In this document: positions 16,201 to 48,218 of the stretch, piece by piece
How positions within the stretch are numbered: the first letter of the stretch is position 1
Layout: each line of letters opens with the position of its first letter
Source: a virus
Virus record (IMG/VR): IMGVR_UViG_3300022843_000001
Location: 1-64,000 of that record
Reading direction: 5' to 3' (one strand)
Length of the DNA: 64,000 nucleotides
Notes under the pieces: model-generated
Database searches by the model: none
The model's input: the letters and a program-made list of their open reading frames with translations, nothing else
What the model was told of the DNA's origin: nothing
Program-made: the position numbers and the translations under genes

Positions 16201-18446
16201 TCATTTGATTGTGGCGATTTTGGATCAATTGCTGATTCACCACGAACCACACCAAATTCTCCATTATCCTTGAGAAACAACTTATCTTTTCGTGCAAGAT
16301 AGATGTTGAAATCCATGATAGTAATTTGCCCAGGTGCAGCAACACTGCCTGGACTAACAAACGCTGTTCCAGCTTCGTTGATCGTAGGACGAAAGTCTAT
16401 AACGTCATGTAATGAGAAAAGACCCTTCGAAGATTCATATGATGGAATCTCGTCCCAAGTAATTTCCGATATACCTGCGTATGATGCAACAGTGAAGAAA
16501 TCACCCGCGCCATGAGAGAAGTAATCAAAAACGATTGTGATGCCTGCCGTGGGTGCAGGTGCACCATATTTTAATCGAATACGACCAACATCATAGAAGT
16601 TATCTCTTTGTCCATTATCAAGACTGTAACGTTCAGTAATATCTTGACCACCCATTGTAACACTCTTCAATTGATAAATGTCTGTTTTTGAGAGCGAATC
16701 ATGTGAACCTGCCACAAGATTAGGAGAAGCGATAGTTAATGACGAATCTACAACCATAGACTTAGTCTTAGGAGTTGCGACCGCGGCTTGTACTGCAACA
16801 TCGATGTATAGAATATAAGTTTCTGCTGCAACACTGCCATCCGTAAATGTAATGCCTTGATTTCCGCCAGTAAAAGCAGAAGTATAATTAACAATATCAC
16901 CTGTTGCTGTGTTACATAACACCGCCGCGGCTTTGTTAGTAAACAATTCGTTTGCACCCGATGTGCTGAATGAAACACTTGTTCCAGCAGAACCAGTTCC
17001 TGTAAACGTTTTGCTTAGGTAAGTAGTTGTTGTATTAACATCAATTGATTCAATATTACTATACGCTAATGGAAACAAAGCAATATTATTTCCGCTGTCA
17101 TTAAGAATACCTGCATTCGCACCTAAAGTAGCAAGGAATGGAAATGTGCCAGAATGTTTAATAAACCCTATGTCACTTTTAAGTTGACCCGCATTCATTT
17201 TAATATCGAAAAGATAAAGATTGTATACACCAGAGACACCTGTGTATTCCATATTTCGAATTCGTGCAGAGCCGATGTTTGCGTTATTTGCCGCGTTATG
17301 TAATTCGACAGGAACAAGACTTAAAACGTGATTAATGTTACCGCTCATTGCAGTGGTGGTAACATAATTACCGTATAGAATTGGCGTTGCGGAGTTTCCT
17401 ACAGCAGATATATCTGCCGCTGATCTTGATCTATCGATATCAATATAAGTTGGAGAAATTGTTTCAATGCGAGTACCGTTAACATATGCAACCGAAGGTT
17501 CAAGTACAGTCTGTAGTTTAGCCGCGTCAGATGGATGATCTCTCATTGATATTTGAAAAGGTCGTAATGTATAATTACCAGATTCTTCAAATGTTCGCGT
17601 TGCAAGAATTTTTAGTAATTCGTTATATTCTGTGCCACGAGCTTCCAAGAGCAATGCTCCGTTTTCTATGTGCGCCAATTGAATGAATTTGTTTTCGGTA
17701 CGACTCGCCTCATCTACTGGTTGGGTTTTTAATACCAAAGTTATGTTGTATCTGTGAGCACCAGGTGCTGCTTGATTGGGAGAATTTGTAGCGTTATCTC
17801 CAAGAGTTGCATCTTCAGCAATAGTAATAACCGCTTCTGTTATAGCAAGAACAACTTTGATTGTTGGTACGTTTGAATATTTACCCACGACAACTGTTTG
17901 AGCACCCGAGTGTACAAAGTTACCATTGACAAAATATATTCCAGGTAATATATCATAGGTCGAAGCTTTACCAATTGGCGTTGTCGCGGCAGCACCAATC
18001 GTTGCTGCAACTCCACCTGTGATTGCAAGAACTTCATCTGCAATGAATAATTTTGCACCAGCAGAACCTGAAGTTGTATATTGAATATAGATTGTGTCTG
18101 GGTCAGAACCTGCAGCAGCAGTAGTTGTGATAACTTTCGCGGTAACACCAGTTCCAGCACCAGTAACTACGCTTCCTGCAACAATTGTTGCAAATGCGCC
18201 AGTTGTTACGGTGATTTTTGCGTAGTGGACATTTGTATCGAAAGTCGGGTCACCCCCTATTACTCTAGTTCCGTCTTTAAATACATGCTCTCCAAATCGA
18301 GCGACTTGATTTTGAAGTACGGTTTGTAATTGCGTTAACTCTCGGCCCTGCACAGCATGACCTGGGCGAAACAACATCCGAAGATAATTTTTAGTTTCGT
18401 CAAAATCATCATTATAAGGTGCTTGCGTATAGGTTCTTAATGTCAT
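13236..18446 (-). CDS. Large baseplate/virion structural protein (DUF4815, VrlC-like)
   Basis: APYNDDFDETKNYLRMLFRPGHAVQGRELTQLQ N-terminus; RFKNGFVVDNF; DPLAQTF motif; position after gp8. Confidence 0.9.
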   Translation of the reverse strand: MTLRTYTQAPYNDDFDETKNYLRMLFRPGHAVQGRELTQLQTVLQNQVARFGEHVFKDGTRVIGGDPTFDTNVHYAKITVTTGAFATIVAGSVVTGAGTGVTAKVITTTAAAGSDPDTIYIQYTTSGSAGAKLFIADEVLAITGGVAATIGAAATTPIGKASTYDILPGIYFVNGNFVHSGAQTVVVGKYSNVPTIKVVLAITEAVITIAEDATLGDNATNSPNQAAPGAHRYNITLVLKTQPVDEASRTENKFIQLAHIENGALLLEARGTEYNELLKILATRTFEESGNYTLRPFQISMRDHPSDAAKLQTVLEPSVAYVNGTRIETISPTYIDIDRSRSAADISAVGNSATPILYGNYVTTTAMSGNINHVLSLVPVELHNAANNANIGSARIRNMEYTGVSGVYNLYLFDIKMNAGQLKSDIGFIKHSGTFPFLATLGANAGILNDSGNNIALFPLAYSNIESIDVNTTTTYLSKTFTGTGSAGTSVSFSTSGANELFTNKAAAVLCNTATGDIVNYTSAFTGGNQGITFTDGSVAAETYILYIDVAVQAAVATPKTKSMVVDSSLTIASPNLVAGSHDSLSKTDIYQLKSVTMGGQDITERYSLDNGQRDNFYDVGRIRLKYGAPAPTAGITIVFDYFSHGAGDFFTVASYAGISEITWDEIPSYESSKGLFSLHDVIDFRPTINEAGTAFVSPGSVAAPGQITIMDFNIYLARKDKLFLKDNGEFGVVRGESAIDPKSPQSNEDSMTLYELDIAPYTGALSDVRPRIINNRRYTMSDIGKLDKRVKNLEYYTTLSLLEQSVLSASTLDASGVERFKNGFVVDNFNGHSVGDVTSTDYKIAMDIQEGILRPHFHQDAISLKVDVSSNIAGIKQHETIITLPYDNTITTSGRADLTGMVASITQPYASGVENLMPYLVFDYAGNLKLSPATDDWIDTETRPQVVINETGVYDAMKFLADKAGVLGTEWNAWQTTWAGTDSNSRTTRNQNALTTTTTNTTTSRQTNTGIRTNISHETVEKDLGDKVVNINFIPFMRSRKVFFYANRLKPSTTMYLYFDGIDLTDYAKNESSSTYATWNAGQANGSNIDTSYKGFTSHPETTTELITSADGEIWGSFIVPSNTTHTFKTGQREVKLTDEADNNDEFESSTASNSYAAQGLLKAVEGTVISTKVPTFEETEISQNRTIVTVNRSISSQNIQTFGGGGGGGGRDPLAQTFIINEVGGAFVTMIDAFFKTKSATTTSVVLAQIRTVVNGYPTAEIIAEASLTSADVSVSETAVTPTTFTFNDPVYLKDGIEYALVLKADNTEYEAWVSELGKFDVTNANYRIAKQPALGVLFKSANGTAWHSDQFKDLKFTIYRAAFDTSATGLVTLVNKEVPAKLLGKDPIEAVNTKTDVRVSHRNHGMNIGDTVSITGATATGGLTINGDHVISKVEPDFYVIVPGSAATSTATGGGIVVNATENRKFELMQTQIQSIILPNTAIAWEKKSSSESAKPYNPATSYIGLLENTSLVETTPQVIPHTNNQPVGNARSFYLKGVMTSVNSNLSPVLDKERMSVITVNNRINQPVDEDSYTVGVNDRVYKELDGTTSRYIDELNPTDNSALSRYMTRKITFEQSANGFKAWMVVNRPLGTNIDLYYRVDEEDTLIFNEQPWIRAYPLGGAPLANDDASLFTEIEYDFENGVAAQDVSGLAAGDSFASVFSAIQLKIVLTSNNSAKVPQIKEFRTIALFG

Positions 18447-18458
18447 TTTGGAATATTC

Positions 18459-19868
18459 CTAGAATTCAATTATGATTTTTACATCTTCAATTTGGGTAGT
18501 CGATCTGTTGACTGGGTCTCGATTTTCGATAAACAGAATATCTCCTGTGAATCTTTCATATTCTTCTGCCACAAGACTATTTATCGTGCCTGCGCCAGCA
18601 CCGGCAGTACCAGTACCTACCAACTTGGTAGTTGTCTCTGCTTGAAATGGTACCCAACCTGTCTTAAAGTTTTGGTGATACTTAATAACATTGGTTGCTG
18701 TGTTTACCGAATCGATAAACGCAATAGCTCCACTTGTATCACCTGTTATAACGTCACCCTTCACATAAACACTTGCATCTGCAACGTTTAGTGATTTAAG
18801 GCCAGAAAGTGTAGTGTCTGTTGCAATAACATCTGTCCCTTGATTCAATGGATTCTGAATTATTCCGACCTGACGAAAAGCATTGTCAGTGATAAAGTCA
18901 CCCGAGCCGTCACCGTATGTTAACTGTACATTAGTTGACATATAGAAAGCACCTAGATTTGCAACAGGATCTGAACCATGACCTTTACCTGGACTTAATA
19001 CTGCTCTTGCCGTAGCAACGGTGCCTGTATGTCCTGTATGAGTTATAGCAACATTTGCCTGTTCGTAATTGGCGCCGCGATTAGCAACTTGAACTTGAAT
19101 TTCTGTAATGACACCTGCAGTAATTGTAACATCGTCTGTAGCAACGGCCGAAACTACACTTGCCCCTGACCCGTTGCCCGTGATTGTAACTGCCAATCCT
19201 GTAAAATCGTAATCTGTTCCACCATCAACTACTACGATTCTATAAATCGACCCGTTGTTATTAGTTTCTGCCGCTTCTTGTGCATCCCATTGAGTTTTAT
19301 CATCGGGAACACCTGCCAAATCAACACCGTTGTTAGCACTAACGACCGTTTTTACAGGCATATAGTTTGTTGTGAGGAATTTATTTGCATCCGAGGCTTG
19401 TAGTGTATACATATACTTCCAAGTATAACCATCAGATTCTTTTACAGCATATGAAGTCTGAACATGAACTGGTTTAGTAACAACACCGGCCGACGCAGCT
19501 GTTACATTAACACAAGCATAGACTTTGAATTGATCTGTGACGCAATACCATGCTTTATCATAAATGTCAGCATCTTGGTCATCATAAGGAACAAATATTC
19601 CGCCAGATACCCAATTGTGTCGTGCATTAACGTGAGATATGTCACCAGTGATGATCTTTTTCATTGCGATCATGTTATCATGCACATCAGACTCTTCGTT
19701 GAGCGTGTCTAACGGCGTTGCAGGGTCGGCGACATCGGTTGTGTCGGTATAAGTATCCGACCATGCGTCTGACTTACCTATGTAGATGTAAGTTTTTCCA
19801 AGGTCGACCTGAGTTTTAAAATTGGCAGCGTTAGCAATTCTAAATTTGTTGGTTACTATAGCTGGCAT
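18459..19868 (-). CDS. gp8: Baseplate wedge subunit gp8
   Basis: MPAIVTNKFRIANA, DGYTWKYMYT, GDILFIENR..QIEDVKIIIEF. Confidence 0.9.
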   Translation of the reverse strand: MPAIVTNKFRIANAANFKTQVDLGKTYIYIGKSDAWSDTYTDTTDVADPATPLDTLNEESDVHDNMIAMKKIITGDISHVNARHNWVSGGIFVPYDDQDADIYDKAWYCVTDQFKVYACVNVTAASAGVVTKPVHVQTSYAVKESDGYTWKYMYTLQASDANKFLTTNYMPVKTVVSANNGVDLAGVPDDKTQWDAQEAAETNNNGSIYRIVVVDGGTDYDFTGLAVTITGNGSGASVVSAVATDDVTITAGVITEIQVQVANRGANYEQANVAITHTGHTGTVATARAVLSPGKGHGSDPVANLGAFYMSTNVQLTYGDGSGDFITDNAFRQVGIIQNPLNQGTDVIATDTTLSGLKSLNVADASVYVKGDVITGDTSGAIAFIDSVNTATNVIKYHQNFKTGWVPFQAETTTKLVGTGTAGAGAGTINSLVAEEYERFTGDILFIENRDPVNRSTTQIEDVKIIIEF

Positions 19869-38075: not shown

Positions 38076-38633
38076 TTATGACACACCTTCTTTAAAGTCT
38101 ATGGCCATTTGTTTGGCATCTTCCATAGTTTTTGCTACCCATTCACCTCGCCCTAGATCTGATATACGATGCAAACAACCGCCAATAGTGTTATGAAGAC
38201 TTAAGTTTGGAGTAGTGTTCGTATACTCCCACTTGATATCGTAACATTTTTCGCCTTGCTCTTCAACGATGCCATCGCATCTGACGTTAATGTGGTATTC
38301 ATCCTTCCAAAAATCAATAGCGGCTTGTTTGTCGTCCTCTGGATTATTTGCTATATAATGACAATCACCTTTTACGCAAGTAGACCCAACTTTAAAGCCG
38401 TTCAGTGCACGATGACTCCAACCAAACCATTCTTTTTGTAGAGGACTATACCCAACACCATGTGTCAATTGTTCTGTGATTTCAAGCTTTGCAAGAATCT
38501 CAACCTGATCTTCCATACCAACGTGAGTAATATAAGACTCGTCAAAATTGCTAAAGTAGCAATCCATGTCTTCATCGCAAATATTATAGGGTTTGATATA
38601 CGCTACTTGTGCTAACCATTCTTTTGTATTCAT
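38076..38633 (-). CDS. Hypothetical protein
   Basis: 185-aa ORF, WFGWSHRA motif. Confidence 0.65.
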   Translation of the reverse strand: MNTKEWLAQVAYIKPYNICDEDMDCYFSNFDESYITHVGMEDQVEILAKLEITEQLTHGVGYSPLQKEWFGWSHRALNGFKVGSTCVKGDCHYIANNPEDDKQAAIDFWKDEYHINVRCDGIVEEQGEKCYDIKWEYTNTTPNLSLHNTIGGCLHRISDLGRGEWVAKTMEDAKQMAIDFKEGVS

Positions 38634-40224: not shown

Positions 40225-41412
40225 TTAACCCTTTACACAAAGCACTTGTTTAATTTCATGTACAATCTCTACCAAATCGGCCTGAGCTGCCATTACATCA
40301 TCGATAGGTTTATACGCACTTGGAGTCTCGTCTATAATACCTTCGTCTATTCTACACTCCACACCACGAACTGCTTCTTCGTGTTGCTGCATAGTTACTA
40401 ATTTCTTCGCTTGGGTTCTGGACATAACCCGACCGGCGCCATGACTACAACTGTGGAAAGATTCCTTGTTTCCCAAGCCTTTAACTATGAATGATCTCTG
40501 TCCCATGCTACTTGGAATGATACCATATTGCCCTTTCTTAGCAGAAACCGCACCCTTTCGAGTAACCCACACATTTTCGTTGTAATGGTTTTCTTTCTGT
40601 ACATAGTTATGATGACAGTCAACAGTCAACTCATCTACCGTAAAAGGTTGTGTATGTTTTTCAAGCACTTCTAAAACATTTTTCATCATCAAAGCACGAT
40701 TCATCTTCGCGAATTCTTGTGCCCAGTCAACGGCTTCGATATATTGATCGAAGTAGGTCGAGTTTTCTGGTAAATATGCCAAGTCCTCGTCTGGCAAAGA
40801 AATAAAATACTTCTCCATTTCCAACTTTGCTTTCTCAATAAAGTATCTGCCAATAGCATTACCCACACCACGACTACCTGAATGTAGCATTACCCACACC
40901 GAATTGTCTGCTTTCTCGATACACACTTCGATGAAATGATTTCCACCACCCAAGGTGCCTAGATGAGCAATATTGTTTGTCTTCTCGACAGGGGCAAATT
41001 CACGCAAATTATCAAAGCCTGAACTTAAATGTTTATTCCAAGTATCGATAACTTCCTTGGGTAATTTCTGGACGTTATGTTTCCCTTGTCCTACAGGAAT
41101 CACCGCTTCAATGTCTAATCTCATCGATTTTAGGTTAAAAGGCAAGTCAGACGCAGTTAAAGACGTTTTAACGGCTTGCATGCCGCAGCCAAGGTCAACG
41201 CCAACTGCAGACGGGATAATCGCTTTTTTGGTGGCCAGAACTGTTCCTATAGCGCAACCTTTACCTAAGTGGGCATCAGGCATAGACGCAATCCATTTGT
41301 GTATGAATGGCATATCAGCAAGGTTCATTAATTGTTCTTTTGTGTTTTCCGCAAAATCAACACCATCACACCAAGCCTTTACTACATGGCCGCGGCCAGT
41401 TAAAACTTTCAT
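40225..41412 (-). CDS. rtcB: RtcB family RNA ligase (3'-phosphate/5'-OH)
   Basis: MPDAHLGKG, VGVDLGCG, LGTLGGGNHF, LHSGSRGVG, HHNY, RKGA, HGAGR, DETPSAYK. Confidence 0.97.
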   Translation of the reverse strand: MKVLTGRGHVVKAWCDGVDFAENTKEQLMNLADMPFIHKWIASMPDAHLGKGCAIGTVLATKKAIIPSAVGVDLGCGMQAVKTSLTASDLPFNLKSMRLDIEAVIPVGQGKHNVQKLPKEVIDTWNKHLSSGFDNLREFAPVEKTNNIAHLGTLGGGNHFIEVCIEKADNSVWVMLHSGSRGVGNAIGRYFIEKAKLEMEKYFISLPDEDLAYLPENSTYFDQYIEAVDWAQEFAKMNRALMMKNVLEVLEKHTQPFTVDELTVDCHHNYVQKENHYNENVWVTRKGAVSAKKGQYGIIPSSMGQRSFIVKGLGNKESFHSCSHGAGRVMSRTQAKKLVTMQQHEEAVRGVECRIDEGIIDETPSAYKPIDDVMAAQADLVEIVHEIKQVLCVKG

Positions 41413-42112: not shown

Positions 42113-42131
42113 ATAATTAGAATATACAATT

Positions 42132-42204
42132 TGGCGCTCCCGATAGGACTCGAACCTATAAATTCCCAGCTTCGTAGGCCGAGTTGCATCCAGTTGCCGA
42201 GAGC
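42132..42204 (-). tRNA. tRNA-Arg(ACG), compact D-arm
   Basis: Loop CTACGAA, T-loop TTCGAGT, CCA. Confidence 0.75.
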
Positions 42205-42390
42205 ATAATTTAATAATTTTCGAATTTGCATTTATTGCAGTGGACGTGATGCCTATGGTCTTCTTTGTTTTTCTGGTCACAATTGGTTAGATTACCGGAC
42301 AAGCAATGAGGGCATATTTTACCTGCCTTCAATTTGTCTCGGAACTTTCTATGTTTACCGCTTCTATTAGACATTTCGTTTCCTATAAAT

Positions 42391-42480
42391 TGGCGGAAAG
42401 ATGAGGAGTCGAACCCCTAACGCTACTAACGTCACCACGGTATTCAACACCGTTTGCCGGCCTACCCAGCGGATCAATCC
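42391..42480 (-). tRNA. tRNA-Ser(TGA)
   Basis: Loop GTTGAAT, long variable arm, G73, CCA. Confidence 0.7.
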
Positions 42481-42490
42481 ATAATTTAAA

Positions 42491-42588: not shown

Positions 42589-42630
42589 GTGTTATAACAA
42601 GATTTTCTACTATATTCAGTAGATGTAATT

Positions 42631-42717
42631 TGGAAGAAGGTAGAGGTAACGATCCCCGAACGCTATAAACGATCCCTTGGGGTTCAAACCCAATTTGTGC
42701 CCAGCACGGTACCTTCC
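42631..42717 (-). tRNA. tRNA-Ser(TGA), second copy, compact D-arm
   Basis: Stem TTGGG/CCCAA, loop TTTGAAC, long variable arm, CCA. Confidence 0.65.
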
Positions 42718-42722
42718 ATTTT

Positions 42723-42796
42723 TGGTAGTCAATGTTGGAATTGAACCAACGTCTCAGGCATGTAAAACCTGTGCTAATCCCCTCAGCTAATCGACT
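42723..42796 (-). tRNA. tRNA-Val(TAC)
   Basis: Canonical cloverleaf, loop TTTACAT. Confidence 0.9.
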
Positions 42797-42879: not shown

Positions 42880-42950
42880 AGGGATTGAACCTCGTATTGG
42901 ATATCAAAGTGACGCCTTGACAATAATATCCTAGCAAACCATGCGCTGGC
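42871..42950 (-). pseudogene. Degenerate tRNA remnant overlapping the CAT tRNA
   Basis: Acceptor GCCAGC/GCTGGT and T-arm GAGG-TTCAATC-CCTC but no valid anticodon arm. Confidence 0.45.
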
Positions 42951-42955
42951 ATTGA

Positions 42956-43026
42956 TGGTGGTGAGCCTAGGTATCGAACCTAACTGATCTGAGATATGAA
43001 CTCTGATTGGTCCCTGACCGCCCACC
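42956..43026 (-). tRNA. tRNA-Met(CAT), compact D-arm
   Basis: Loop TTCATAT, T-loop TTCGATA, CCA. Confidence 0.7.
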
Positions 43027-43033
43027 ATAAAAG

Positions 43034-43123
43034 TGGAGGAAGACGCTGAAATTGAATCAGACACACATTTCTGGTGCGATTTGTTTAGCAAACAATCCTA
43101 GTCACCAGACTAGATCATCTTCC
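43034..43123 (-). tRNA. tRNA-Ser(GCT)
   Basis: Loop TTGCTAA, long variable arm, CCA. Confidence 0.75.
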
Positions 43124-43128
43124 GAAAA

Positions 43129-43199
43129 TGGCGACCCGATAAGGAATTGAACCTTACAAGACAACGTTTGGAGTGTCGTCACCGCCCAGCGGCCGAGCC
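43129..43199 (-). tRNA. tRNA-Trp(CCA), compact D-arm
   Basis: Loop CTCCAAA, G73, CCA. Confidence 0.75.
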
Positions 43200-43204
43200 A
43201 ATAT

Positions 43205-43280
43205 TGGAGGCAAATAAGAGAATCAAACTCTTCAATAACGAATTTGCAATTCGCACCCGTCATCAGCTGGGTCATCTGCC
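43205..43280 (-). tRNA. tRNA-Cys(GCA)
   Basis: Loop TTGCAAA, U73 discriminator. Confidence 0.85.
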
Positions 43281-43287
43281 GTAAAAT

Positions 43288-43359
43288 TGGTGGAGAATAT
43301 CGGTAACGATCCGATCCATCGACATTGCAAATGTCAAGTCTATCCCATACAGATTCCCC
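43288..43359 (-). tRNA. tRNA-Ala(TGC), compact D-arm
   Basis: Loop TTTGCAA; G3:U70 identity pair. Confidence 0.85.
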
Positions 43360-43457
43360 AAATTTGGTGGACCTTTTAAGAAGGTAGCCGAACCTTTATT
43401 CTATCGCGTGTTCCATATTACACCACATGCCGGACTCGAACCGGATCTCTAAGAATT

Positions 43458-43543
43458 TGGTGGTAGTGGAAGGATTCGAACCCTCAATGACTAGCATACC
43501 TGCGGGTTACAGCCGCGTACCCTTCCTAATGGGTGTCACTACC
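43458..43543 (-). tRNA. tRNA-Tyr(GTA)
   Basis: Loop CTGTAAC, long variable arm, CCA; 5' end overlaps endonuclease stop. Confidence 0.85.
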
Positions 43544-44077
43544 TTTGTTTCTTTTCAATGTTCTAGTTGCATTGGTCACCGTTGCGGCACAACTAGAACT
43601 ACAATATTTGTTCTTTCGTTTTTTATAAGATATAGCATCATGACAATATTCACATATCTTAGGAGATTCTTTATATATAGCTTGAGTCTTATAATGTCGG
43701 GCATTAGCTTTTTCTGATGCCCCATTTTCATTAGCTATGCGCATTGCCTTTTGATTTTTAAGTTTTCTCAATTTCTCATTAGAGTTGATATAGTCCCATC
43801 CACCAGAACCACCTAATTTTAGGTTATAGGTATTAGATTCAGCAATGAAATCAAGATTAACAATTTCAGATTCCTTGTTAAACATTTCCTCTGGGTTGTC
43901 ATAAACGAATAAGATTTCTTTTGTGAATTTGTCTAATCCATGTTTGTCCTGAGCGTATTTTAAGTATTTTCCAGAACCCATATAATTGTCGTTCAAATTT
44001 TTGGTCTTATGTGTTCCAATATAGAACTTGCCATTGATTTGATTTGAAATCTTATAAACAGTGTATTTTATTTCCAT
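43526..44077 (-). mobile_element. GIY-YIG homing endonuclease in tRNA array (SegB-like position)
   Basis: [24 protein letters not shown]; C-terminal CxxC..CSSSC zinc finger. Confidence 0.9.
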
Positions 44078-44082
44078 ACATC

Positions 44083-44090
44083 TATTTATA
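44083..44090 (-). promoter_or_regulatory. Late promoter, 5 nt before endonuclease ATG
   Basis: TATAAATA GATGT ATG. Confidence 0.75.
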
Positions 44091-44117
44091 ATATTTCGAG
44101 TCTTGACTTCGACTCAA

Positions 44118-44191
44118 GGGAGCAGGTAGGGATAATCGAAATCCACTCAGCACGGCTTGGAAGGCCGGCGACTCACCTCGAGCTTACCTGC
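44118..44191 (-). tRNA. tRNA-Gly(TCC), ends CCC not CCA
   Basis: Loop CTTCCAA, U73. Confidence 0.75.
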
Positions 44192-44203
44192 AAAAATAAA
44201 ACA

Positions 44204-44299
44204 CACGACAGACAGAGGGCGATAACAAATGGGCTTTAACGATATATCAGCATCATCCCTGCCGCACCTCGACGGCTTTTCTCTACTTCATCTGTCGTG
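44204..44299 (-). ncRNA. Putative structured ncRNA in tRNA array
   Basis: Perfect 9-bp closing stem CACGACAGA/TCTGTCGTG enclosing AGAG/CTCT, AGGG/CCCT, GCCG/CGGC helices. Confidence 0.55.
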
Positions 44300-44305
44300 C
44301 ATATT

Positions 44306-44377
44306 TGGTAGCGGAAAGAGGACTTGAACCTCTGCTTCACAGGTTATGAGCCTGGAATGCAACCGTTGCGTTCCGCG
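44306..44377 (-). tRNA. tRNA-fMet-like (CAT), compact D-arm
   Basis: C1:U72 mismatch, loop CTCATAA, CCA. Confidence 0.75.
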
Positions 44378-44384
44378 TTAAAAA

Positions 44385-44449
44385 GGTCGAGAGCGCAGGA
44401 CTTGAACCTGACTATGATTCCCGTATAGGGACTTAACATTGTACTCTCT
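44385..44449 (-). pseudogene. Degenerate tRNA remnant
   Basis: T-arm CAGG-TTCAAGT-CCTG and GAGAG/CTCTC acceptor but broken D and anticodon arms. Confidence 0.45.
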
Positions 44450-44517
44450 ATAAATTGGCGGCAAACTTTCCATTCGCCTTGCTGATCACCTTGTACAAAG
44501 TGGTAGCATCTACATGT

Positions 44518-44593
44518 TGGCGACCCTTACGAGTTTTGATCTCGTTGCCTCCACCTTGACAGGGTGGCGCTCTCCCGATTGAGCTAAAGGGTC
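44518..44593 (-). tRNA. tRNA-Asp(GTC)
   Basis: Canonical, loop CTGTCAA, G73. Confidence 0.92.
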
Positions 44594-44611
44594 TTAATTT
44601 AAAATATTCTG

Positions 44612-44771
44612 TCAGGATGGTTGGACTCGAACCATCCATCTAAAGCATTTAGTCAGGACGGCTGGATTCGAACCAGCGTCTCCGCGTTCCAAACGCGGTA
44701 CTAAACCAAGCTCAGCTACGCCCGGACTAAATGCTCTATAAACGTGACTTACCAAGCTAACCTACACCCTG
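44612..44771 (-). pseudogene. Outer tRNA-Pro-like shell interrupted in its anticodon arm
   Basis: CAGGGTG/CATCCTG acceptor, AGCTTGGT D-loop, TTCGAGT T-loop flank an inserted tRNA. Confidence 0.7.
44653..44725 (-). tRNA. tRNA-Pro(TGG), nested; CCA not encoded
   Basis: Stem CCGCG/CGCGG, loop TTTGGAA, T-arm GCTGG-TTCGAAT-CCAGC. Confidence 0.85.
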
Positions 44772-44788
44772 ACACAATATTCTAAATT

Positions 44789-44864
44789 TGGTGCGTCCTC
44801 GAGGAATCGAACCTCGTTATCTGGTTCTTCAAACCAGCGCATTGACCACAACTGCCTAAGACGC
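44789..44864 (-). tRNA. tRNA-Phe(GAA)
   Basis: Loop TTGAAGA, CCA. Confidence 0.88.
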
Positions 44865-44869
44865 GTAAT

Positions 44870-44944
44870 TGGAGCCCCTAGTCGGAATCGAACCAACTTA
44901 TCCGGATTACAAAACCGGTGCATCACCTTTTATGCTTTAGGGGC
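44870..44944 (-). tRNA. tRNA-Thr(TGT)
   Basis: Loop TTTGTAA, CCA. Confidence 0.9.
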
Positions 44945-44948
44945 GTTT

Positions 44949-45103
44949 TGGCATTCCCGATAGGACTCGAACCCTGAACTTGACTTTAGAAGAATCGTGT
45001 GATTTCCAGTTTTACCATACACGCATTATTTGTTATCATGTAATATACACGTTACCTTATATCGACTTATTGCAACGTGCCTATCCAATTAGACTACGGG
45101 AAC
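44949..45103 (-). pseudogene. Chimeric/interrupted tRNA-Arg locus (outer acceptor pair plus inner Arg(TCT) body)
   Basis: GTTCCCG (45103) pairs with CGGGAAT-G-CCA; inner GCGTGTA..CTTCTAA..T-loop lacks its own 3' acceptor strand. Confidence 0.6.
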
Positions 45104-45147
45104 ATTAAATTGCACAGTAACATTGCTGTTGTTACTGTTTTAAAAAT

Positions 45148-48102: not shown

Positions 48103-48122
48103 ATAATTCTTTTAATATATTT

Positions 48123-48198
48123 TGGGGTGTAATCTGGGTTTCGAACCCAACCCTCATGAGTCACAGTCATGCATGCTTCCAATTACACCTATCACACC
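48123..48198 (-). tRNA. tRNA-His(GTG)
   Basis: G-1:C73, loop CTGTGAC, CCA. Confidence 0.92.
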
Positions 48199-48218
48199 CC
48201 AAAATATATTCTACCCAT

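Follow-up and report, generated by a model that had tools for sequence, protein, structure and literature searches.

A tRNA-Pro gene nested within a disabled tRNA-Pro gene in the genome of a distant T4-type phage

Why should a phage genome hold one complete tRNA gene inside what is left of another tRNA gene of the same type? The question is raised by a stretch of DNA (the window) of 64 kb, which opens a virus record that is complete, 198,785 bp long, and bounded by terminal repeats. The virus is a distant T4-type myovirus, having a gp6-like baseplate wedge and a topoisomerase II. Its minus strand carries a dense array of tRNA genes between about 48.2 and 41.9 kb. Within this array, a tRNA-Pro gene sits in the middle of a second tRNA-Pro gene, which surrounds it as a shell.

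Two answers were offered when the sequence was first read. In the first, the nest is the gene of a precursor RNA that releases the inner tRNA and has its outer halves put back together, possibly through the RNA ligase RtcB. In the second, the nest records the replacement of one tRNA gene by another that was inserted into the old anticodon, conceivably under pressure from an anticodon nuclease. The second is now the better supported, through the presence of two tRNA-Pro lineages in the one locus, through the recurrence of the design in bacteria, and through a variable block of DNA around the nest that bears an endonuclease gene. We place at roughly 60% the probability that the nest is a replacement cassette within a disabled resident tRNA-Pro gene.

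Anatomy of the nest

Read along the minus strand from 44771 to 44612, the nest consists, in order, of the 5' half of the shell, one arm of a 13-bp stem, a tRNA-Pro(UGG), the matching arm of the stem, and the 3' half of the shell. It lies between a tRNA-Phe (44864-44789) and a tRNA-Asp (44593-44518). The coordinates, the sequence, and the nesting described in the first-pass annotation were rechecked on the sequence, and stand.

The 5' part of the shell (44745..44771; this and all other parts of the nest are on the minus strand) begins with the acceptor 5' strand CAGGGTG, passes through TA into a D arm (GGTT-AGCTTGGTA-AGTC), and ends with A26. The six bases that follow, CGTTTA (44739..44744), are probably a remnant of the resident gene, representing the 5' strand of its anticodon stem together with loop base 32, at a junction that is ambiguous. 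They are read in this way because C27 starts this stem in all intact homologues, and because the bacterial nests discussed below break approximately after position 32. Next comes the 5' arm of the inverted repeat (TAGAGCATTTAGT, 44726..44738), which runs directly up to base +1 of the inner gene.

The inner tRNA-Pro(UGG) (44653..44725) runs for 73 nucleotides to its discriminator A. It had been described as intact, and it is indeed called by ARAGORN, with a score of 54.6 bits against the Rfam tRNA model. Its discriminator A serves also as the first base of the 3' arm of the inverted repeat (ACTAAATGCTTTA, 44641..44653). The 3' part of the shell (44612..44640) then supplies a remnant of a variable loop, (A)GATG, a T arm (GATGG-TTCGAGT-CCAAC), the acceptor 3' strand CATCCTG, and a discriminator A, and has no CCA after it. 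CCA is thus encoded by neither the inner nor the shell gene, as had been noted at the outset.

The two halves of the shell still fit each other. The acceptor strand on the 44771 side pairs with 44619-44613 at all seven positions, six of them Watson-Crick and one a G-U. The first reading had reported a mismatch in the D stem of the shell and another in the T stem. The T stem does have one, a true A-A mismatch (A50xA64). The D stem, however, has two G-U wobbles and no mismatch, as ARAGORN draws it once the shell has been given a donor anticodon arm. The inverted repeat, first seen as 10 bp that could be extended to 13, forms 13 contiguous pairs; these are the 10 perfect pairs and three more that include one G-U.

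Taken as an RNA, the nest has three nested helices with no conflict among them, and its fold is much more stable than those of shuffled sequences (z-score -6.1). A single bulged A separates the 13-bp helix from the 7-bp helix, and six unpaired extra bases separate the D arm of the shell from the 13-bp helix. Two registers are available for the anticodon stem of the resident. In one, CGTTT (positions 27-31) pairs with AAATG within the 3' arm, and a 9-nt variable region is left. In the other, AGAGC pairs with GCTTT, with seven extra bases before the stem. This, in turn, makes the 3' junction of the insert ambiguous.

The shell and the inner gene

What sort of gene was the shell? Its final 22 nucleotides are exactly identical in seven contigs, and each time they end an intact tRNA-Pro gene (five with the anticodon TGG, one with AGG, and one truncated). 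When the parts of the shell are joined through the anticodon arm of a homologue, ARAGORN calls a tRNA-Pro. The shell itself lacks an anticodon arm; its acceptor, D, and T arms show little damage.

An interrupted tRNA gene might, of course, regain its anticodon by losing the interruption. All deletions that start at nest positions 26-59 and end at positions 100-135 were constructed in silico, giving 34 x 36 = 1,224 variants. ARAGORN called 145 of these as tRNAs, and it could call so many because the acceptor, D, and T arms of the shell are good. A proline anticodon appeared in 0 of the 1,224, and a well-paired anticodon stem was likewise seen in none; exact excision of the inner gene leaves two mismatches in a 5-bp anticodon stem. 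Given the undeleted nest and allowed to use introns, ARAGORN called the inner gene alone and did not call the shell. The shell is a genuine tRNA-Pro derivative, and it is unable to give a decoding tRNA.

The T stem of the shell reads GATGG where seven of the seven homologues have GTTGG, and this pair-breaking change is found only in the shell. Intact versions of the shell gene occur only in unrelated contigs. The lightness of the damage to the shell, together with the intactness of the 13-bp helix, fits a recent event. Selection at the level of RNA would account for it just as well.

The inner gene is the sole tRNA-Pro in the 198.8-kb genome. It has in common with the shell 38 of the 51 bases compared. 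A segment of 28 nucleotides, comprising its T arm, its acceptor strand, and the first five bases of its trailer (CTAAA), is identical in two contigs from huge phages (L146/L147). The acceptor stem in those contigs is perfect (CAGGACG/CGTCCTG). The inner gene has the 5' strand CCGGGCG, which creates a C2xU71 mismatch, a derived state when compared with L146. Judged by their sequences, the inner gene and the shell are members of two different tRNA-Pro lineages, both widespread.

The bases that follow A73 of the inner gene are CTA, not CCA. All of the other tRNAs that ARAGORN finds in the genome (20/20) have an encoded CCA. Being of another lineage, and being the only tRNA among the 21 that is without a CCA, the inner gene looks imported. 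No gene for a CCA-adding enzyme was found in this genome, and the inner gene probably depends on the host for the processing of its 3' end and for the addition of CCA.

The leader and trailer of the inner gene are peculiar as well. More than five contiguous pairs between leader and trailer are seen in only two of the 21 tRNAs of the genome, those for Pro and His, and each of these has 13. A helix of this kind buries the site of RNase P cleavage, and should be a hindrance to that enzyme. It may be set down as a counterpoint to replacement that the inner gene is flawed too, in having C2xU71, no CCA, and the leader-trailer helix.

Relatives of the nest and its neighbourhood

Does the design occur elsewhere? 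The first-pass annotation had suggested a search for tRNA halves that flank a tRNA. IMG/VR and GTDB were scanned for pairs of T loops spaced 18-48 nt from each other, a distance too short for ordinary tandem tRNAs. Other nests were found in this way.

Among the 133 IMG/VR matches listed, three are full tRNA-in-tRNA nests: the one in the window and those at L049 and L091. About 30 further loci among the 133 listed are intron-bearing tRNAs with tRNA-shaped inserts, as called by ARAGORN with introns allowed. The other two phage nests combine tRNAs of unlike identity, and neither has a flanking inverted repeat. At L091, a tRNA-Phe lies within a tRNA-Arg, and exact excision gives a 7-nt loop, CTTCTAA. 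One further candidate, L225, was rejected as a nest; it has two 5' halves that resemble the shell's and are separated by 36 nt, and these are a tandem duplication.

Among the 124 GTDB matches listed, at least six are same-type nests, and these have no nuclease gene. They are Thr(GGT) in Kerfeldbacteria (L332), Thr(UGU) at two loci in Patescibacteria (L376, and L330 with a 12-bp inverted repeat), Val(GAC) in Saccharibacteria (L327, with a 15-bp inverted repeat), Leu in Omnitrophota (L334), and Met in an unclassified bacterium (L378, with a 10-bp inverted repeat). At L327, one arm of the repeat ends against base +1 of the inner tRNA and the other opens with its discriminator, a geometry exactly as in the window.

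Thus, an insert of the same type as its resident, often with a flanking inverted repeat, recurs in bacteria, and this groups the nest in the window with the bacterial nests. The bacterial examples, mostly from Patescibacteria/CPR, are like it in having an insert of about 100 nt, in having no nuclease, and often in having flanking inverted repeats. They differ from it in that they lie in cellular genomes and in that the anticodon stem of the resident is usually readable on both sides. The nest in the window, in contrast, is found in a T4-like phage, has an ambiguous 3' junction and six extra bases, and has repeats whose sequences are unrelated to those in the bacteria.

A separate scan sought tRNA-Pro 5' halves having the AGCTTGGT D loop, and found them in about 118 viral contigs. 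In three of these, an endonuclease ORF interrupts the gene (L231 and L197, both with an ORF of the HNH type, and L261). At L261, a complete spare tRNA-Pro(TGG) comes immediately after the endonuclease ORF, whose stop codon falls inside it. In all three, as in the window, a resident tRNA-Pro has been broken in or near its anticodon arm. The three carry a nuclease gene, however, and have mostly lost one half of the shell, whereas the nest in the window has both halves and no ORF.

Scans for the particular nest gave less. A blastn search of INPHARED with the nest returned single-tRNA matches only. Exact scans of IMG/VR returned no match to the 5' half of the shell, one match to its 3' half, and two matches to the 3' half of the inner gene, none of them nested, and a metagenome scan for the 3' end of the shell returned six matches, all to intact genes. 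The nest is absent from the loci gathered on the basis of RtcB and from those gathered on the basis of the Fe-S protein. In the closest relative by RtcB (L295, 84%), tRNA-Pro is present as a tandem pair of genes that encode CCA, and there is no nucleotide similarity to this tRNA cluster. A second copy of the cassette was found neither in the genome nor in the IMG/VR or metagenome scans, and among close relatives none turned up with an allele of the empty site. The repeat arms, with up to one mismatch, have no further copy in the 198.8-kb genome; a MITE was rejected on this ground. In the literature searched, neither the nesting of a tRNA within another of the same type nor replacement nests of this kind were found described; the one mention of a possible tRNA within a phage tRNA intron is that of Devoto et al. 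(2019).

The DNA around the nest is variable. A related virus (L149), whose Fe-S protein is 77% identical and whose tRNA-Asn is 94% identical, is collinear with the window as far as the tRNA-Asn, and then jumps to an element at window 42949. A BLAST comparison of the cluster with L149 fixes the edges of the difference: window 45226-45144 corresponds to L149 7022-7104, and window 42949-42871 to L149 7108-7185. L149 is therefore without a whole block of 2,194 nt (42950..45143, minus strand), and not merely without the insert. The block holds an Arg-like element, tRNAs for Thr and Phe, the Pro nest, a tRNA-Asp, odd tRNA-like genes, a homing endonuclease, a tRNA-Tyr, and a lone T-arm relic. This relic stands after the tRNA-Tyr, and no 5' partner for it was found upstream of the endonuclease gene. 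Further tRNA relics are present in the same cluster.

The endonuclease in this block is a free-standing homing endonuclease of the GIY-YIG type (43526..44077, minus strand), assigned through PHROG 314 (E 2e-36) and a weak Pfam match to GIY-YIG/SegE. Its gene lies 535 nt downstream of the nest, inside which there is no nuclease gene, and its last codons overlap the tRNA-Tyr. Its closest homologues (64% identity) sit in non-tRNA contexts, and so give no clue to its target.

T4 offers an obvious comparison. There, the GIY-YIG endonuclease SegB lies in a tRNA array and recognises the sequence of a tRNA gene, and T2L is without it and without several tRNAs (PMC2330249). Here likewise, an endonuclease and several tRNA genes are missing together from a relative, L149. 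Homing by SegB, however, has not been reported to nest one tRNA in another, and SegB has no counterpart within the nest of the window.

Replacement and its alternatives

The preferred reading may be stated as a series of steps. A resident tRNA-Pro gene belonging to a different lineage would have received, in its anticodon region, a unit of about 100 nt made of a complete tRNA-Pro(UGG) gene and the 13-bp inverted repeat of its leader and trailer, and would have lost its anticodon to the insertion. The resident would then have been left as a shell, its acceptor 5' strand and D arm standing before the insert and its variable loop, T arm, and acceptor 3' strand after it. The inner gene would be the working copy, replacing the function that was lost. 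It would be transcribed together with its neighbours, which is plausible because no promoter or terminator consensus was found adjoining the nest. Its maturation would presumably require RNase P at the 5' end, a cut by a host enzyme of the RNase Z/BN type after A73, and a CCA added by the host, as with the tRNA-Pro of T4. Such an element could land in a tRNA gene without harm through the spare copy that it brings along, and not through being spliced out.

What might have moved the unit? Here, the proposal is that the nest is a homed allele, mobilised, probably in trans, by a homing endonuclease, with the halves of the shell acting as homology arms. That a homing endonuclease drove the insertion is a tentative idea, and we would sooner bet against it than for it. 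It is weakened by the lack of a nuclease in the nest and by the failure to find either an empty site or a second copy. It is weakened also because the closest homologues of the neighbouring enzyme sit away from tRNA genes and do not point to its target.

The nest might instead have a role as RNA, one that does not require its pieces to be re-ligated. It could be a carrier that orders or protects the maturation of the inner tRNA, or it could be a stable tRNA-like RNA. An RNase III-type enzyme may, for example, cut in the coaxial helix of about 20 bp, or the product may be an RNA like species 1 of T4. Of the stable T4 RNAs known as species 1 and 2 (rnaC, rnaD), the first is encoded in the tRNA cluster of T4 and is a precedent, being a tRNA-like shell (a T arm and five of seven acceptor pairs) around a long hairpin; unlike the nest in the window, it contains no tRNA. 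The helices of the nest are free of conflict and far more stable than those of shuffled sequences, as a working RNA would have them. Further, the tRNA-His of the same phage has its own 13-bp leader-trailer helix, implying that such stems are tolerated or used.

The stem-flanked geometry recurs, of course, in L327 and L330, which would suit a working RNA. A role of the stem at the level of DNA, in mobility, explains that recurrence equally well. Moreover, an RNA device would not be expected to show the pair-breaking change in the T stem of the shell, found in no homologue, nor the six unpaired extra bases between D arm and helix. We regard it as unlikely, therefore, that shell and stem form a working device that times maturation, or that they yield a sealed, anticodon-less RNA serving as decoy or regulator, although no other rival to replacement is as probable. 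If they do form a device, then the stem-flanked same-type nests of the Patescibacteria would be the same device, and not selfish DNA.

A little less probable again is the view that the entire nest is dead, with shell and inner gene both decaying relics and the phage relying on the tRNA-Pro of its host. A gene that has no CCA among 20 that do, that has acquired C2xU71, and whose two ends are tied up in a 13-bp helix might well be decaying, particularly in a genome with no gene for a CCA-adding enzyme and in a cluster with several other relics. The inner gene has nevertheless kept C1-G72, A73, and the UGG anticodon, and its 54.6 bits place it in the middle of the range for this tRNA cluster. Nor is the lack of CCA a sure sign of decay; the sequence of the T4 tRNA-Pro encodes none either, and that tRNA is functional; the tRNA-Ser of T4 is without an encoded CCA too. 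Bacteria generally have a CCA-adding enzyme.

The reading in which the nest is the precursor of a tRNA with a tRNA-shaped intron, the inner tRNA being released and the halves of the shell being sealed by an Rnl2-like ligase or by RtcB into a functional RNA, we consider improbable. The idea has real antecedents. Lak megaphages have "enigmatic" tRNA introns, one of them possibly encoding a tRNA (Devoto et al., 2019; PMC6784885). Nests that excision can restore do exist, as L091 illustrates, and about 30 intron-bearing calls stand among the 133 viral loci listed. The phage also has candidate ligases: RtcB is encoded 3.2 kb from the nest (40225..41412, minus strand; Pfam PF01139, E 4e-124), much where the first reading had placed it, and the genome encodes two proteins with PF09414 ligase domains. 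Their substrate would be a shell with little damage to its acceptor, D, and T arms.

The chemistry and the sequence are, however, both unfavourable. RtcB joins a 3'-phosphate to a 5'-OH, whereas RNase P and RNase Z leave a 3'-OH and a 5'-phosphate; the products of these two enzymes would not give RtcB the ends that it requires. The shell has no anticodon loop, none of the 1,224 excisions restores one, and the insert has no terminal CCA. The genome encodes no splicing endonuclease of the family PF01974, a search to which control genomes responded, and the nest has no bulge-helix-bulge. The rejoined precursor of the first-pass annotation thus finds no support. Furthermore, since the inner gene and the shell are of the same isoacceptor type, a spliced shell would be redundant.

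Comparison with known interruptions of tRNA genes leads to the same place. The Lak introns and the viral inserts at L091, L041, L047, L076, and L128 likewise put a tRNA or a tRNA-shaped element inside a phage tRNA gene. There, the surrounding gene is otherwise intact, its loop can be restored, the two identities differ, and no inverted repeat is present; the nest in the window is the opposite in each respect. Although its insert is tRNA-shaped from +1, it has no CCA end and leaves no 7-nt loop to be restored, and an intron of the Lak type was rejected. The introns and split tRNAs of archaea share with the window an interrupted tRNA gene and RtcB. The window differs from them in having no bulge-helix-bulge, no splicing endonuclease, and no recoverable anticodon, and in being from a phage of bacterial type; archaeal-type splicing was rejected on the first two of these.

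Other classes of element were considered and rejected. A group I intron would need roughly 200 nt or more, where the insert has about 100, and no ribozyme core was found; a cmscan against Rfam over 44400-45000 (E<=10) returned tRNA and noise only, with no intron or ribozyme. An integrase att site was rejected because the halves of the shell occur once each, because the flanks are inverted and not direct repeats, and because the insert has no ORF.

The record is, of course, a metagenome assembly, but the chance that assembly joined two tRNA-Pro variants by mistake is negligible, because all six contigs that reach the nest, taken from different samples and made by two assembly pipelines, agree at 100% identity over it and the surrounding 901 nt, and the repeat arms, at 13 nt, are shorter than assembly k-mers. 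The same phage was found in the other samples through an exact-protein look-up with the neighbouring endonuclease. The first-pass annotation had named misassembly, and a shell that is not conserved, as the points on which its account might fail. Base-for-base identity in six independent metagenome assemblies excludes the former. As for the latter, all of the copies found are identical, and so they offer no variation from which selection might be read or the conservation of the shell judged.

What, then, would replacement mean for the biology of these phages? If this reading is true, tRNA genes can be overwritten by a spare copy that lands in the resident's anticodon region. This would be a third harmless seat in an essential gene, beside splicing, as used by introns and inteins, and the rebuilding of the end of the target, as used by integrative elements. 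It would, in turn, help to explain the fast change of the tRNA sets of phages. The phage example links the bacterial nests, mostly from Patescibacteria, with the long-known traffic of homing endonucleases in T4-type tRNA clusters.

A shell goes unseen in annotation because tRNA finders report the inner gene only. The nest is, in addition, a compact substrate, 160 nt in all, for RNase P, RNase Z/BN, and RNase III acting on tRNA ends that are locked in a helix. Most likely, the nest marks a little-described route by which one tRNA gene is exchanged for another, through the insertion of a spare copy.

Nests and unusual tRNA-Pro-type genes in other viral contigs

The nest, in which a complete tRNA-Pro(UGG) sits inside the anticodon region of a broken tRNA-Pro shell, has counterparts elsewhere. 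Two IMG/VR contigs, L091 and L049, hold full tRNA-in-tRNA nests whose inner and outer identities are unlike. In L091, an outer tRNA-Arg(UCU or CCU) encloses a tRNA-Phe(GAA); this outer tRNA has an encoded CCA, and its loop can be restored. In L049, a related shell encloses a tRNA-Ile(GAU) with CCA, and the loop of this shell cannot be cleanly restored.

Other contigs carry tRNA-Pro-type genes that are unusual in different ways. Two huge-phage contigs, L146 (476 kb) and L147 (296 kb), share a tRNA with a Pro-type acceptor stem (CAGGACG/CGTCCTG) and a GAG anticodon (L146 2160-2275, minus strand). Its D arm is separated from its anticodon arm by a 47-nt insert, which itself holds a sigma-70-like TTGACA-17-AATATT. 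In L225 (7691-7765, plus strand), a 36-nt unit that covers a 7-nt leader plus the initial 29 nt of a tRNA-Pro-like gene is duplicated in tandem. The sequence of L261 (899-1600, minus strand) reads, in order, as a promoter, the start of a tRNA-Pro, an endonuclease-like ORF and a complete tRNA-Pro. The broken tRNA-Pro keeps about 34 nt of its 5' end before the 214-aa ORF begins, and the TAG stop of that ORF forms positions 8-10 of the second, complete tRNA-Pro(TGG). This complete tRNA has its CCA encoded and differs from the broken one upstream.

Broken and odd tRNA-like genes in the window array

The array that holds the nest also contains a tRNA-like element of 163 nt (44948-45110, minus strand), called by neither ARAGORN nor Rfam. 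Its canonical 5' half, GTTCCCG-TA-GTCT-AATTGGAT-AGGC-A, pairs at 7 of 7 positions with CGGGAAT-G-CCA some 155 nt downstream. These two segments enclose an AT-rich spacer (about 75 nt), a second D-like hairpin, an anticodon arm with TCT (Arg) and a T arm. The element could be related to the nest, with the doubling limited to the 5' half, or could be a tRNA interrupted by an insertion at position 26/27.

A lone T arm with the 3' strand of an acceptor stem (GATCCGGTTCGAGTCCGGCATGTGGTG; ~43405-43445, minus strand) immediately follows tRNA-Tyr, a gene that is itself fused with the 3' end of the GIY-YIG homing endonuclease ORF. No 5' partner was found in the 1 kb upstream, and the arm looks like the remains of an older tRNA.

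Six further tRNA-like genes have D arms that are odd or absent (42130-42205, 42394-42481, 42630-42727, 43038-43123, 44120-44193 and 44310-44376, all on the minus strand). ARAGORN missed them, and Rfam scored some of them near or just under threshold. Among them are an Arg(ACG)-like gene (GCTCTCG...CGGGAGC-G-CCA) and a Ser(TGA)-like gene with the T loop GGATCGTTACC. All end in CCA except one, Gly(TCC)-like, which ends in CCC.

Leader-trailer pairing, encoded CCA and ligase genes

Besides the tRNA-Pro of the nest, only one of the genome's 21 ARAGORN tRNAs lies in a leader-trailer stem this long. Inverted-repeat analysis places tRNA-His (48114-48210, minus strand) in a helix of 13 contiguous pairs (AATATATTTTGGG.../...CCCAAAATATATT) that also pairs the encoded CCA; with the acceptor-stem bases counted, the repeat is 20 nt long and 95% complementary. 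Throughout the 198,785-bp phage genome, a 3' CCA is encoded in 20 of the 20 ARAGORN tRNAs other than Pro, and the genome has no gene for a CCA-adding enzyme. It does encode RtcB, two proteins with a PF09414 ligase domain and an ATP-dependent DNA ligase.

The RtcB neighborhood and a weak hint at the host

The RtcB/tRNA region is adjoined by a homologue of Tad6, a Thoeris inhibitor (38076-38633, minus strand; Pfam E 1e-31). A Tad6 homologue (18111-18689) likewise adjoins the tRNA array in L295, the contig with the closest RtcB relative (84%). Outside phage contigs, the best named matches to RtcB come from Thiothrix, Leucothrix and Thiolinea (Thiotrichales), at about 61% identity. These matches hint weakly at the lineage of the phage's host, or at the source of its RtcB gene.
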